Assembly (NCBI RefSeq): GCF_045037415.1
Contig: NZ_CP173438.1
Strand: one strand, 5' to 3'
Source: Escherichia coli
GTDB lineage: Bacteria; Pseudomonadota; Gammaproteobacteria; Enterobacterales; Enterobacteriaceae
Length of the DNA stretch: 64,000 nt
Part shown: positions 51,406 through 54,304 of the stretch, piece by piece
Position numbering within the stretch: position 1 is the stretch's first letter
How the letters are laid out: each line of letters opens with the position of its first letter
Notes under the pieces: generated by a model
Database searches by the model: none
The model's input: only the letters and a program-made list of their open reading frames with translations
What the model was told of the DNA's origin: nothing
Made by a program: the position numbers and the translations under genes

Positions 51406-54228
51406 ATGACGGCAGAGTACCTCAGGGACTGGCAACAACCGCGCCACGCAGTGGGGCGTGAAGGAACGGGGATCCCCGCTCCTGAATCCGCGCTTTCCTC
51501 CTGGCTGGATGCCTACCGGGCAGAGAACGAGCGCCGCCAGGAAATGGCTGATGCGGCGTTCTCAGCCACGCCGCTGGGCAACCTGATTAATAAAAGCCTG
51601 GACGCACAGGAAAAACAGGACAAAACCATCACACTGGCAGGAGACGCCAGAAAACAGGCACGTGGCGCGGTGGATGAAGCCATGGCCTCGCTGCGCCTGC
51701 TGCCGTCCTATCTGCGCGATCCGCTTATTCGCCACCTCTCCTTCCTGCGCAAAAAACAGGAAGCCGATCGCCGGAAAGGCAAAAAGAGCTGGCAGGCGGA
51801 ACGCTATGCACGCGGAACCCTGCGCAAAATATTCGAACGTCTGGATAGCACTGACGGACGCTGGCTGACACCGGGTTATCGCTCCCTTGCCGGACGCGAA
51901 CGCCTGGACGATTTGCTTTACCTGCCGCAGCTCAACAAACACCAGATACAGACGCTGGCCACCATGACGGCGGCGATGTTCAGCAGCACCTTCGAAAAAC
52001 TCTGCGATGGCTTTGGCGCGACCGATGGCGAGCTGACCATGGATGTAACCCTGAAGGCGTATCAGATGCTGGCCCGCATGGCGTTACACCTGCACGCCAT
52101 GCCTCCACATTATGACGCACTGACAACAGACAAAGACCGGAGGAACGAACCGGACACGGAGCTGCTGCCGGGCGCAATCCTTCGCCTGACCTGTGCGGAA
52201 TGGTGGAAACGCAAACTGTGGCTGTTACGTTGCGAGTGGAGAGAAGAACAACTCCGCGCCGCCTGTCTGGTTTCCAGAAAAACATCACCCTATCTGAGCC
52301 AGGACGCGTTAAGCGAGTTTCGCGCACAGCGCGAGAAAACACGCGATTTCCTGAAAAGTTTCATGCTGGAAAATGAAGACGGGTTCACGATTGATCTCGA
52401 GACAGTGTATTACGCGGGAGTAAGTAACCCGGTTCACCGTAAGGCAGAAATGATGGCCACCATGAAGGGACTGGAACTTCTGGCCGAAGCCCGTGGCGAC
52501 AAAGCGGTGTTTCTGACTGTCACCTGCCCGTCAAAATACCACGCCACAACGGAGAACGGTCATCCGAATCCCAAATGGAACGGGGCCACAATGCGCGACT
52601 CCAGCGATTACCTGGTTAACACGTTTTTTGCGGCGGTCCGCAAAAAACTGAACCGCGACGGCCTGCGCTGGTATGGCATCCGCACGGTGGAGCCTCATCA
52701 TGACGGCACCGTGCACTGGCATATGATGGTCTTTGCACATCCGGAAGAAATCGACACCATTGTGTCCCATACCCGCGATATTGCCATTCAGGAAGACCGC
52801 CACGAGCTGGGCAATGATATTACTCCGCGCTTTAAGGTGGAGTATGTCGACGGCTCAAAAGGCACGCCAACCAGCTACATCGCCACCTACATCGGAAAGA
52901 ACCTGGACAGCCGCGCCGTGGATGGCATCGACCCGAAAACGGGCAAGCCACGCGTGGACCACGAAACCGGAAAATCAATGGCCGAGAGCGTGGAGCGCGC
53001 CATCGGCTGGGCGCGCCTTCACCGGGTCCGTCAGTTCCAGTTCTTTGGCATCCCCTCCCGTCAGGTGTGGCGTGAACTGCGCCGCCTTGCCAGCCAGATG
53101 GCACGCAATCCGGAAGGCCCGCAACGGCTGAAAGATGATGCAATGGATGCGGTACTCGCTGCCGCCGATGCCGGGTGTTTTGCCACCTACATTGAAAAAC
53201 AGGGTGGCGTGCTTGTTCCACGCAAGGACTACCTGATTCGCACCGCCTACGACCTCGCAGATGAGCTGAACGATTACGGCGAACAGAGCGTACAGATTTA
53301 CGGGATCTGGTCACCACTCATCGGGGAATCCTCCCGTGTGTGCACGCATCCGGATAACTGGAAGCTGGTAAGACGTAAACCGGAAGCGGAAGACAGCGCC
53401 CGCGAAAATGGTTTTGACCTTCAGGGCGGCCCTGCCGCCCCTTGGACTCGTGGCAATAACTGTCCCCGTGTACAGGAAACGGACAACAACGGGACAGAAC
53501 AGCCGGAAGAACGGCCAGCACCGTGGCCGCAGCTCCCTGACGGCGTTGAAGTGAACGAATGGATGCGCTCACTGAAACGACACGAACGCCGGGCGCTGAT
53601 GCGTTCGCTTCGTGACAAACAGGCAAAAAACAGCAGCGATGAAATGCAGAGCTGGACACAGAGCCGCAAACAGCAGCGGCCTTTGCCTGATAACCACGAA
53701 TTACTCGCTAAAGAATGGCGGGAGTCTGCTGAATCTCTCGGCCTGCATATCGGTGAACAACAGATGCAGCACCTGTTACGGGGCGGCAGTCTGTACGTTG
53801 ACGGCAGCATCATTGCACCGCAGGGATTTGAAATTGTACGCAAACCGGATACCCGCCCGGACAGCCGAATCACGCAGCTCTGGCAGCGCCTGAGCCGTAA
53901 TCATGGCGTAAGCAGCACGGAGATCCGCCATAACCCGGTCGCCAGCTATCTGGCACAGCTGGGGGCATCAGACCCTGAAGCCGCCGCACGCCTGGCATCC
54001 ACACTTCAGCAGGGCCAGAACACCATGAAAACACCCGTTACCGTGCTTTCTGACATGCTGCGCGCCATCCGCGACGCAGAGCACGCACAGAGAATCAGTG
54101 AAACCACTGAACGCGCCAGCCGCAAAGCAGACCTGCTGCGGGGTGGCCTGACCAGTGGAAACAAAAAACAGACAGAAACGGGACTTACGAATCCCGTAAA
54201 TGAGCAAAAAACGCGCAGCGATATATGA
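51406..54228 (+). CDS. replication initiation endonuclease (P2 gene A family, rolling-circle HUH protein)
   Basis: 940-aa ORF containing HWHMMVFA (HUH-type motif) and downstream Tyr-rich segment; position matches P2 A. Confidence 0.8.
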   Translation: MTAEYLRDWQQPRHAVGREGTGIPAPESALSSWLDAYRAENERRQEMADAAFSATPLGNLINKSLDAQEKQDKTITLAGDARKQARGAVDEAMASLRLLPSYLRDPLIRHLSFLRKKQEADRRKGKKSWQAERYARGTLRKIFERLDSTDGRWLTPGYRSLAGRERLDDLLYLPQLNKHQIQTLATMTAAMFSSTFEKLCDGFGATDGELTMDVTLKAYQMLARMALHLHAMPPHYDALTTDKDRRNEPDTELLPGAILRLTCAEWWKRKLWLLRCEWREEQLRAACLVSRKTSPYLSQDALSEFRAQREKTRDFLKSFMLENEDGFTIDLETVYYAGVSNPVHRKAEMMATMKGLELLAEARGDKAVFLTVTCPSKYHATTENGHPNPKWNGATMRDSSDYLVNTFFAAVRKKLNRDGLRWYGIRTVEPHHDGTVHWHMMVFAHPEEIDTIVSHTRDIAIQEDRHELGNDITPRFKVEYVDGSKGTPTSYIATYIGKNLDSRAVDGIDPKTGKPRVDHETGKSMAESVERAIGWARLHRVRQFQFFGIPSRQVWRELRRLASQMARNPEGPQRLKDDAMDAVLAAADAGCFATYIEKQGGVLVPRKDYLIRTAYDLADELNDYGEQSVQIYGIWSPLIGESSRVCTHPDNWKLVRRKPEAEDSARENGFDLQGGPAAPWTRGNNCPRVQETDNNGTEQPEERPAPWPQLPDGVEVNEWMRSLKRHERRALMRSLRDKQAKNSSDEMQSWTQSRKQQRPLPDNHELLAKEWRESAESLGLHIGEQQMQHLLRGGSLYVDGSIIAPQGFEIVRKPDTRPDSRITQLWQRLSRNHGVSSTEIRHNPVASYLAQLGASDPEAAARLASTLQQGQNTMKTPVTVLSDMLRAIRDAEHAQRISETTERASRKADLLRGGLTSGNKKQTETGLTNPVNEQKTRSDI

Positions 54229-54272
54229 AGCGCGCACAAAACAGGCAAAAACGGGATTTCAGAATCCCGTAA
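54176..54272. promoter_or_regulatory. two copies of a 25-bp dyad element (AAACGGGA-N8-TCCCGTAAA), candidate parC-like site or cargo junction
   Basis: Copy 1 at 54176..54200 inside the 3' end of gene A; copy 2 at 54248..54272, ~30 bp upstream of parM; each has inverted arms ACGGGA/TCCCGT. Confidence 0.45.
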
Positions 54273-54304
54273 ACGATTAATTAATCAACATAAGGAAAAG
54301 CGAC

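Follow-up and report, generated by a model that had tools for sequence, protein, structure and literature searches.

The A-parM-parR junction and its repeats

Within the window, by which we mean the whole 64-kb stretch of E. coli DNA analysed here, lies a P88-like prophage (Xuanwuvirus, P2-like) whose genes A, parM and parR follow one another in this order. Of 5426 complete E. coli genomes, 1298 have the A-parM-parR junction, and parMR cassettes are also present in P2-like prophages of other genera (Hafnia, Plesiomonas, Serratia and Enterobacter). Nearly all P88-like copies of the junction are integrated in the chromosome, where a centromere has no obvious use, and this counts against such a role. 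When GTDB genomes were scanned with ParM, only three loci came up, all near-identical; in the scans of viral contigs no loci were found with the Hafnia ParM and one locus with the Plesiomonas ParM. The genes A, parM and parR form a block conserved in the P88-like phage group. The variable cargo starts inside parR, at about 55414-55465, and stops at 57243; hence, the repeats described below do not lie at the left edge of the cargo region, where the first-pass annotation had placed them. The features of the locus are the following.

51406..54228, plus strand: gene A, replication endonuclease (Phage_GPA, 940 aa), from the list of open reading frames, the annotation of identical phage and genome records and Pfam PF05840 assigned to identical genes
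54162..54203, no strand: repeat 1, 42 nt, with an A-rich left part AAAAAACAGACAGAA followed by dyad 1, from the direct-repeat search
54178..54197, no strand: dyad 1, ACGGGACTTACGAATCCCGT, with the conserved core GGG-N10-CCC at 54180-54195
54204..54234, no strand: 31-nt inter-repeat spacer, which holds a poly-A tract (54206-54211) and the stop codon of A (54226-54228)
54235..54276, no strand: repeat 2, 42 nt, non-coding, from the direct-repeat search
54251..54270, no strand: dyad 2, ACGGGATTTCAGAATCCCGT, with 8-bp arms, a 4-nt centre and the core GGG-N10-CCC at 54253-54268
54276..54288, plus strand: ATTAATTAATCAA, the ATTAAT(T/C)AA box between dyad 2 and the ribosome-binding site, from the four-lineage alignment
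54292..54296, plus strand: Shine-Dalgarno-like AAGGA of parM, read from the sequence
54305..55264, plus strand: parM, actin-like partition ATPase, 319 aa
55269..55583, plus strand: parR, ribbon-helix-helix centromere-binding adaptor, 104 aa, PF10784 (Plasmid_stab_B)
55632..55656, no strand: perfect 9-bp inverted repeat 3' of parR, from the inverted-repeat search and the sequence

Judged by sequence comparison, the two partition proteins are a bona fide ParM and a bona fide ParR. The product of parM is a full-length match to R1 ParM (1MWK, E=8e-93, phmmer against PDB), and Pfam StbA_N/ParM_N is assigned on genes identical to it. The ParR family profile matches pB171 ParR/StbB (2JD3, E=5e-15), the protein belongs to phrog_2515 ('partition protein') and is alignable with ParR of R100, and its gene lies directly downstream of parM. 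The inverted repeat at 55632..55656 is likely a terminator between parR and the convergent cargo genes.

Both 25-mers noticed earlier are present exactly as quoted, AAACGGGACTTACGAATCCCGTAAA at 54176-54200 and AAACGGGATTTCAGAATCCCGTAAA at 54249-54273. The first is indeed located within the last codons of A (reading frame 51406-54228), and the second within the 76-nt gap preceding parM (ATG at 54305). With up to 3 mismatches allowed these are the sole two matches in the window, and 0 of 100 dinucleotide shuffles gave any; ACGGGA-N8-TCCCGT with at most 1 mismatch also occurs at only these two places in the window, where 0.14 are expected. No further dyad copies or half-sites are found elsewhere in the prophage or in the 64-kb window. 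The repeated unit is longer than the 25 bp first reported: 54162-54203 and 54235-54276 form a 42-nt direct repeat with 83% identity and no gaps, and the offset, earlier given as 72 bp, is 73 bp from start to start. The two 42-nt repeats occupy the region 29-143 nt upstream of the parM ATG and are the only repeated element found there.

In the window, dyad 1 has a C.A mismatch at its seventh pair. In most related prophages it is a better palindrome, ACGGGATT-CACA-AATCCCGT, with 8-bp arms, and its core CGGGA/TCCCG is near-invariant across 97 unique junctions. The spacer is the most polymorphic segment, with the poly-A tract varying between A5, A6 and A7.

Association of the repeats with the parMR cassette

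The repeats belong to the parMR cassette and not to gene A. One prophage (L070) encodes an A protein just 31% identical and an extra ORF, and in two others (L198 and L071) the 3' region of A is replaced. All three become homologous to the window at 54161-54164, that is, at the left end of repeat 1, and remain so through both dyads and parM to the middle of parR. Complete E. coli genomes with these mosaic contexts number 1 and 3, and about 1290 other E. coli genomes align to the mosaic contexts solely from the left end of repeat 1 onward. The A alleles found beside other cargo end with ...SGNK* or ...EKKK*, the stop of the ...SGNK* form being aligned to 54166-54168, and they carry no intact dyad: it is either missing or reduced to a decayed remnant, as in L001.

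In the P88-like prophage it is the left end of the par cassette that supplies the last 21 codons of A (54166-54228), and the tail of the protein reads ...GNKKQTETGLTNPVNEQKTRSDI*. The reading frame across dyad 1 is that of A in P88-type prophages and a different one in L071 and in the Hafnia locus L219, where A ends with ...KRDS* within the dyad; in L070 the dyad is part of a 31-aa ORF. The A5/A6/A7 tract variants also shift the frame of the A tail. What is kept is the DNA of the repeats and not the encoded peptide. For the annotation of the 940-aa A protein this means that its last 21 residues are read-through into the par cassette, and they are probably outside the function of the replication protein.

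The repeat had been described as a partial duplication of the 3' end of A. We find instead three non-homologous upstream sequences, A alleles that end earlier when they neighbour other cargo, and differing frames, so that description is not retained. The accompanying idea was that of a functionless scar, in which cargo exchange left a second copy of a short piece of the 3' end of A, or of the junction, that has persisted by descent and gene conversion. The repeats are certainly recombinogenic, since one prophage (L154) lost exactly one 73-bp unit. The identical changes in both copies (ACAGGA in L198, loss of G19 in L219) resemble gene conversion, and the edges of repeat 1 coincide with mosaic breakpoints. 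The conservation within the P88-type is itself weak evidence, because these sequences are all at least 95% alike. However, the repeat is not copied A sequence; the upstream ORF runs into the left arm of the cassette, and the intact dyads follow three unrelated upstream sequences and are absent from the A alleles with other cargo. A simple tandem duplication does not describe it either, because only 42 of 73 nt are similar. Moreover, the core, the spacing and the distance to parM persist where ParM is 38% diverged and the flanking non-coding DNA is unalignable, and neutral duplicates would decay, like the L001 remnant. We therefore regard a scar as very unlikely. Had the repeat been missing from related parMR loci and found at cargo junctions whatever their cargo, the earlier proposal would have been refuted; the opposite pattern is seen, which supports the parC-like reading.

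Several other readings of the junction were rejected. Copy 2 might be taken for a relic of an alternative A C-terminus, but the resemblance of TGFQNPVND* to TGLTNPVNE is due to the DNA repeat, the frames vary, and repeat 1 occurs without a P88-type A. The small ORFs at 54200-54280 (26 aa) and 54225-54272 (15 aa) and the 31-aa ORF of L070 are not conserved; the first two are shifted by the A5/A7 variants or truncated by the C>T variant at 54237, carried by 14 of the 97 unique junctions. An origin or A-protein site is rejected by inference, because the elements also occur beside an A protein of just 31% identity.

Conservation of the dyad pair and its possible readers

Exactly two GGG-N10-CCC elements are present in each of four lineages: the E. 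coli P88-type, Hafnia L219, Hafnia L222 and Plesiomonas L224, the latter three with ParM identities to the P88-type of 93%, 62% and 62%, respectively. Their offsets from the parM ATG are -125/-52 in the P88-type, -124/-51 in L219, -128/-55 in L222 and -131/-59 in L224. The spacing of the pair is thus 72-73 bp in all four, with the N10 diverged. Among the P88-like loci it equals 73 in 152 of 162. The prophage L154 has a single hybrid repeat and the defective prophage L002 has none, which counts against a centromere. The background of GGG-N10-CCC is 0.23 per kb, and the window contains one such pair, at parM. The repeats are real and linked to parMR, and their position, spacing and GGG/CCC core are kept across lineages.

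The repeat type also follows the type of ParR. Lineages with the ParR strand TRR(I/V)SFYL carry the GGG-N10-CCC pairs, lineages with the strand NRKISFYL (Serratia, Enterobacter and L228) have the inverted pair GAAATAGAAAAAT/ATTTTTCTATTTC instead, and each of the Pantoea, D6, IncFII and R100 systems carries short iterons of its own. Repeat type and ParR beta-strand subtype vary jointly, a correlation drawn from few independent lineages. Within the P88-type phages the two alleles of the ParR mid-region show no association with dyad variants, and the ParR beta-strand is invariant there; covariation at this fine scale is thus absent, which counts against the parC reading.

Each dyad also folds as RNA, with an 8-bp stem, a 4-nt loop, an energy of -9 to -10.7 kcal/mol and a z-score of about -3. 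Hence the repeats might act as stem-loops that stabilise or process the end of the A message and the 5' leader of parM, or as tandem minus-strand terminators blocking antisense read-through into the early operon. The terminator scan calls both dyads, on the minus strand only, and there each resembles an intrinsic terminator, a G+C-containing hairpin followed by a T-rich run. However, no gene feeds leftward transcription, the scan places no minus-strand promoter to the right, the plus strand has no U-tract, and there is no Rfam match. The two common dyad 2 polymorphisms, A>G at 54251 and C>T at 54268, retain G.U pairing on the plus strand, but the common ones of dyad 1 are wobble-compatible only on the opposite strand, as for random transitions. 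No convincing covariation is seen: departures at the inner pairs are all unpaired cells, and the shuffle controls show nothing remarkable. It is the stem sequence itself, and not merely a stem, that both copies share, and L198 and L219 each have one pair-breaking change present in both copies. The Hafnia and Plesiomonas relatives with 62% ParM identity have lost the inner palindrome and the hairpin stability (predicted at about -4 to -5 kcal/mol, the loops being 10 nt), as well as the upstream A-run and with it the T-run of the minus strand, but keep the position, the spacing and the GGG/CCC. An RNA role of the dyads is therefore improbable.

The dyads could also be bound by something else than ParR, for instance an early or late regulator of the phage or a host protein, which would control transcription from A into parMR or a promoter for parMR. 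The dyad form and the fixed distance to parM suit many transcription factors, and the ATTAAT(T/C)AA box, conserved in four lineages, follows dyad 2. We consider ATTAATTAATCAA a candidate -10 element or a part of the parM leader, and in some variants the centre of dyad 2 becomes TAAAAT, which is -10-like. Nevertheless, the elements move with parMR into a background where A is only 31% identical, so that a binder encoded by the cassette is the most economical, and the element type tracks the ParR beta-strand type. The sites of a regulator recur at several promoters, but no second dyad locus exists in the prophage or the window. The Ogr-type motif of P2 is TGT-N12-ACA, which the dyad sequence does not appear to fit. 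We thus judge a binder of this kind unlikely.

It had further been supposed that copy 2 occupies the expected position of the parM promoter. This is not confirmed: in the consensus scan of 54100-54305 no sigma-70-like site is detected in or between the repeats, and an R1-style operator role is therefore unsupported. The hand-picked hexamers TTTCAG-17-ATTAAT, as well as CAGAAT or TAAAAT in the centre of dyad 2, are too weak to be claimed as a promoter. The earlier proposal of a parC-like centromere/operator bound by ParR is favoured on comparative grounds, by the linkage to parMR, the loss or decay of the repeats where A adjoins other cargo, the conserved position and the match to ParR type.

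The proposed centromere and its relation to known systems

We suggest that the two 42-bp repeats probably form a two-site parC centromere/operator bound by ParR. The locus combines a ParM-type ATPase, a downstream ParR and repeats specific to the ParR subtype immediately upstream of parM, by which type II partition systems are recognised. ParR binding, its stoichiometry, centromere activity and the regulatory role are what we infer from these sequence comparisons, and the mechanism may be outlined as follows.

Step 1: The two repeats would serve as the cis site, a centromere and probably an operator, of the type II ParMRC cassette of P88-like P2-type prophages. Repeat 1 overlaps the last codons of A because the cassette abuts the upstream gene and replaces its natural stop.

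Step 2: Ribbon-helix-helix ParR dimers would recognise both GGG-N10-CCC dyads, each dyad probably being occupied by a dimer of dimers. From centre to centre the dyads are separated by 73 bp of A-tract-rich DNA, which is about seven helical turns, and the two ParR complexes would thus lie on the same face of the DNA.

Step 3: The ParR-DNA complex would then capture the ends of ParM filaments. Since the site is directly in front of parM, the expression of parMR may possibly be modulated as well.

A broader reading, which we hold as possible but doubtful, is that P88-like prophages have a complete functional ParMRC with a minimal two-dyad centromere, read palindromically by a PF10784 ParR and serving an extrachromosomal phase. 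By analogy with SrpMRC of the SXT/R391 ICEs this phase could consist of excised or replicating circles or a carrier state. Were this so, the line between integrating prophages and phage-plasmids would be blurred. The palindrome-reading mode is not described for the PF10784 ParR family. Should the dyads be the ParR site, they define the centromere of a ParMRC subfamily very common in E. coli, where about a quarter of the complete genomes carry it. The 115-bp fragment would then be a handle on the question of what use a plasmid partition machine is to an integrating phage, and the locus would offer a compact two-site parC for studying how few ParR sites capture ParM filaments; otherwise the dyads are only an ordinary conserved junction repeat. 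Full-text literature searches, including those for P88, Xuanwuvirus and CP-933T partition genes, returned no paper treating this locus or site.

Characterised parC sites are repeats located just upstream of parM (PMC2241845, PMC9426499). R1 parC has ten tandem A/C-rich 11-bp direct iterons in the arrangement 5x11 bp + 39 bp + 5x11 bp, and its central part holds the par promoter (Dam and Gerdes 1994; PMC2241845). The prophage locus shares with R1 and R100 the order of cis site, parM and parR, with the site directly upstream of parM in A-rich DNA, and with R1 the two repeat blocks around a central spacer, here 42 + 31 + 42 bp. Its ParR is 33% identical to ParR of R100, both belonging to PF10784, and the leader motif CATAAGGA is common to the prophage parM and the R100 parM. 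Unlike in R1, there are two units only, each around a GGG-N10-CCC dyad, the left one is located within the final codons of the upstream gene, and the host is an integrating prophage and not a plasmid. No tandem 11-bp iteron array of the R1 type is found upstream of the prophage parM. We also considered hidden R1-like iterons in the phasing of A-tracts and AAAC, which is suggestive only: the AA periodicity near 10.25 bp has p ~0.09 here versus <0.002 for R100 parC, and the p-value for AAAC phasing was set aside as an artefact of mononucleotide shuffling.

The site count of two is below that of characterised parC loci such as R1 with its 10 iterons, which counts against a centromere. So does the conserved unit, a dyad, whereas direct repeats are the reported binding sites of characterised ParR proteins (PMC9426499). 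The number of repeats varies, with two of 10 bp in pB171 and four of 17 bp in pCW3 (PMC9426499). The prophage system is similar to pB171, pSK41 and pCW3 in its ribbon-helix-helix ParR, and these systems indicate that few repeats can suffice and that the sequence and spacing of the site are family-specific. However, their sites are described as direct repeats, and here dyads are found, 73 bp apart rather than adjacent.

In the srpMRC locus of the SXT/R391 ICEs the adaptor binds 13-bp repeats, direct and inverted, in the centromere srpC upstream of srpM; isolated half-sites are bound poorly, and the locus experimentally stabilises the excised replicative form of the ICE (PMC4489591). Like the P88-like cassette, it is a ParM-type partition locus on a normally integrated element. 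Unlike ParR of PF10784, SrpR has no recognisable relation to this family, srpC has four repeats and not two, and stabilisation is experimental in the ICEs whereas the P88-like cassette is known here from its sequence. On these comparisons, the dyad pair is most likely an addition to a known kind of partition system.

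The dyad pair ahead of parM

The two 25-mers reported by the first-pass annotation are present at 54176-54200 and 54249-54273, and with up to three mismatches they have no other match in the 64-kb window (0/100 shuffles matched). The dyad itself, ACGGGA-N8-TCCCGT, was found with up to one mismatch at these two sites only (54178-54197 and 54251-54270). The similarity exceeds 25 bp and extends to a gapless 42-nt direct repeat, 83% identical, with 73 bp from start to start:

54162-54203: repeat 1, within the last codons of the 940-codon ORF 51406-54228 (A, replication endonuclease gene)
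54204-54234: spacer, 31 nt separating repeat 1 from repeat 2
54235-54276: repeat 2, in the 76-nt gap ahead of the ORF beginning at 54305 (parM)

The core pattern GGG-N10-CCC occurs at 0.23 per kb in the window, and a pair 70-75 bp apart is found once in 64 kb, which is the present pair.

Phage P88 and other Xuanwuvirus records (P2-like, Peduoviridae) match the region at 96-100% identity, and in their annotations replication endonuclease is followed by ParM and a partition protein. The 319-aa parM product matches R1 ParM structures (E=8e-93). The 104-aa product of 55269-55583 is a member of PF10784 (Plasmid_stab_B = ParR/StbB), and its family profile matches the pB171 ParR structure 2JD3 (E=5e-15). 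The dyads therefore precede a complete parMR pair. The junction is carried by 1298 of the 5426 complete E. coli genomes, chromosomal in nearly every case; plasmid records hold only 2/1532 junction matches. A circular, non-mobilizable E. coli "plasmid" record (L127; NZ_CP148288.1, 34,461 bp) is a complete P88-like phage genome that has parM and parR as well as A and both dyads. The record may represent a phage copy that is excised or episomal, or may come from assembly of induced phage DNA.

Neighbour of the repeats: A, parMR or cargo

The repeats had been read either as a parC-like site or as a scar of cargo exchange, with the A 3' end partly duplicated. Alignment of the junction across prophages with differing cargo favours the former reading and speaks against the latter, since the repeats follow parMR and not A. 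The comparison set comprised 160 related loci with enough flank, equal to 102 distinct junction sequences; an initial pattern scan over viral contigs favoured intact dyads, and the later ParM-retrieved set is free of that bias. Intact repeats with a non-homologous left flank are found in three of the 160 loci. L070 encodes an A protein of only 31% identity, with an additional 159-aa ORF behind it; L198 and L071 have other sequence in place of the final part of the A region. All three become homologous to the window at 54161-54164, where repeat 1 starts, and stay so across both dyads and parM into parR. Such mosaic contexts are present among complete genomes too (one and three genomes); in about 1290 others, alignment to these contexts is confined to the sequence from the left end of repeat 1 rightward.

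Where P88-type A lies next to other cargo, homology ends before or inside repeat 1. A is joined to a KAP NTPase in L001 (C-terminus LLRRGVKSGNK-stop) and to an AAA ATPase and S8 peptidase in L003 (GNSEKKK-stop). In L001 the stop codon lines up with window codon 54166-54168, and this locus, unique among 5426 genomes, retains only a decayed repeat 1 remnant with the right arm deleted. The mosaic breakpoints at repeat 1, together with A lacking intact repeats beside other cargo, therefore show that the par cassette has the repeats as its left end, and hence that the last 21 codons of A (...KQTETGLTNPVNEQKTRSDI-stop) are read-through into it.

The repeats had also been placed at the left edge of the cargo region, which does not hold. 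The block A-parM-parR is conserved in the P88-like phage group, and homology between prophages breaks only within parR (55414/55465) and returns at 57243. The variable cargo therefore starts within parR, away from the repeats. The returning homology forms a conserved block (57243-57698), about 600 bp ahead of the portal gene. ParR alleles diverge strongly at residues ~31-40, with two mid-region alleles, and at the hypervariable residues ~65-95; P88-type prophages show no variation in the N-terminal strand TRRISFYLKP or in the C-terminal tail KKNIQxxFPE. ParR allele type and dyad variants have no association among P88-type prophages. Beyond parR lie the following features:

55632-55656: perfect 9-bp inverted repeat TGGCACCCT-N7-AGGGTGCCA, separating parR from the convergent cargo gene, probably a bidirectional terminator
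55667-56509, minus strand: cargo gene, 280-aa multi-pass membrane protein, phrog_12528, with a weak PADLOC match to Csx27 (E=1e-5)
56549-57046, minus strand: cargo gene, 165-aa protein, phrog_2284

The two cargo genes are convergent and may form a small defence or exclusion module.

Coding, RNA and promoter readings

The peptide across dyad 1 is not conserved among the lineages compared; thus selection, if any, would act on the DNA or RNA sequence. L071 reads dyad 1 in another frame, stopping at TAA just after it; A of the Hafnia locus L219 terminates within it (...KRDS-stop); in L070 it falls in a separate 31-aa ORF. The poly-A tract 54206-54211 varies among prophages (A5/A6/A7), which alters the tail of A and gives three C-termini; the A5 ORF crosses dyad 2 and terminates at 54280. 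The tract lengths may be genuinely variable or may reflect sequencing errors in a homopolymer. Two small ORFs spanning repeat 2 were rejected, being disrupted by the poly-A variants or a common C>T at 54237.

The dyads might instead act as RNA hairpins or terminators. Each is foldable (-9 to -10.7 kcal/mol), and on the minus strand T-rich runs come after each dyad, hence both are in the terminator scan list. However, relatives with 62% identical ParM have lost the inner pairs, leaving predicted hairpins that have 10-nt loops and reach just -4 to -5 kcal/mol. Pair counts over 43 distinct elements give no convincing covariation: a few two-sided changes occur at three outer pairs, inner pairs depart by mismatch only, and controls are unremarkable. 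For the common polymorphisms, the wobble-compatible strand for dyad 1 is opposite to that for dyad 2. The Rfam search gave no match, and the scan no minus-strand promoter right of the dyads. On all of these grounds we rank RNA functions low.

No sigma-70-like site was found in the scan of 54100-54305. Four lineages (E. coli, two Hafnia lineages and Plesiomonas) keep an ATTAAT(T/C)AA box (54276-54288) between dyad 2 and the ribosome-binding site of parM, despite diverged flanking non-coding DNA. parMR may be transcribed either from its own ParR-controlled promoter or by read-through from the early operon.

Repeat type, ParR type and a proposed partition complex

Among 97 distinct P88-type junctions there is almost no change in the cores CGGGA(T) and (A)TCCCG; the variable sites are the outermost pair, the seventh pair and the four central bases, and are densest in the spacer. 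The dyad-to-dyad distance is 73 bp in 152/162 loci, 72 in 4 and 74 in 2. L198 has ACAGGA in both dyads and L219 lacks the G of TCCCGT in both; these changes are concerted, with pairing broken. P88-type sequences are too alike for conservation to carry much weight, therefore the argument rests on the mosaic junctions and four to eight distant lineages.

The distant cassettes, retrieved by ParM search, come from other genera, in whose P2-like prophages parMR lies between A and the portal gene: Hafnia (ParM 62%), Plesiomonas (62%), Serratia (57-58%) and Enterobacter (54%). This placement recurs in several enterobacterial genera (L222, L224, L225, L226, L229), and the adjoining morons vary (HicAB toxin-antitoxin, KAP NTPase, D12-type methyltransferase). 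Exactly two GGG-N10-CCC elements are found in each of the four lineages tabulated.

GGG-N10-CCC pairs, positions from the parM ATG
E. coli P88-type: ParM reference; -125/-52; spacing 73 bp
Hafnia L219: ParM 93%; -124/-51; spacing 73 bp
Hafnia L222: ParM 62%; -128/-55; spacing 73 bp
Plesiomonas L224: ParM 62%; -131/-59; spacing 72 bp

N10 has diverged between lineages (GGGACAACAAAAACCC in Plesiomonas, for example), and the first element overlaps the end of the upstream ORF in all four, whatever the ORF. Their ParR proteins have the strand TRR(I/V)SFYL in common. In the Serratia, Enterobacter and L228 lineages this strand is NRKISFYL, and the dyads are replaced by an inverted pair GAAATAGAAAAAT ... 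ATTTTTCTATTTC; repeat 2 and this site nevertheless have the motif AACAGGCAAAAACGGGA in common. In the four NRK-type loci L225, L229, L226 and L228 the pair lies at about -120 to -50 from parM as GGGAAC-GAAATAGAAAAAT ... ATTTTTCTATTTC-GTTCCC, ~30 nt apart, and a GCCGTTTAAACGGC palindrome comes after it; pair and palindrome would be a different candidate parC architecture. In plasmid and phage-plasmid relatives, each with short iterons of its own, these lie upstream of parM in phage D6 (TCTCA), an IncFII plasmid (TTTCTATATA), a Pantoea plasmid (TTTCTCT) and R100 (A/C-rich 11-mers). A parC site would be expected to hold its position ahead of parM and to differ with the DNA-reading strand of ParR, as the repeats do here; because independent lineages are few, we take this as support, not proof.

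Two deletions affect the site. L154 (IMGVR_UViG_2657245439_000011, junction ~3431-3468) has lost exactly one 73-bp unit by recombination between the 42-nt repeats, leaving one hybrid repeat and A in frame (...KKQTKTGFKNPVTD-stop). This shows that the repeats are recombinogenic and offers a natural one-dyad test case. In the defective prophage L002 (NZ_CP085183.1, 2153-2540) the DUF4761 early gene is fused straight to the parM leader. The deletion takes A, both dyads and the remainder of the early operon, and its endpoint is immediately 3' of dyad 2.

We suggest that each dyad is bound by ParR dimers at its GGG and CCC half-sites, which are 13 bp apart centre to centre, so that each dyad would hold ribbon-helix-helix dimers of dimers. 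With seven helical turns between them on A-tract-rich DNA, the two dyads would be presented on one face; AA periodicity at this site is not significant. The dyad-ParR complexes might then form the partition complex captured by ParM filaments.

The features of type II partition testable here are all present: ParM, ParR and, upstream, a repeat site that is particular to the ParR subtype. The dyad pair is thus a candidate parC of a type II system; the literature search found no paper describing this dyad site. The architecture differs from that of R1, as the tandem 11-bp array is absent. Also, the R1 par promoter lies between two iteron blocks (PMC2241845), whereas the spacer here is the most variable part and has no detected sigma-70-like site. 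The more interesting question is why so common an integrating phage family retains a partition machine. In parC sites the repeats lie just upstream of parM and are specific to each family, and 2-4 of them can suffice (PMC9426499); srpC of the SXT/R391 ICEs, with direct and inverted repeats, is likewise carried on a normally integrated element (PMC4489591).
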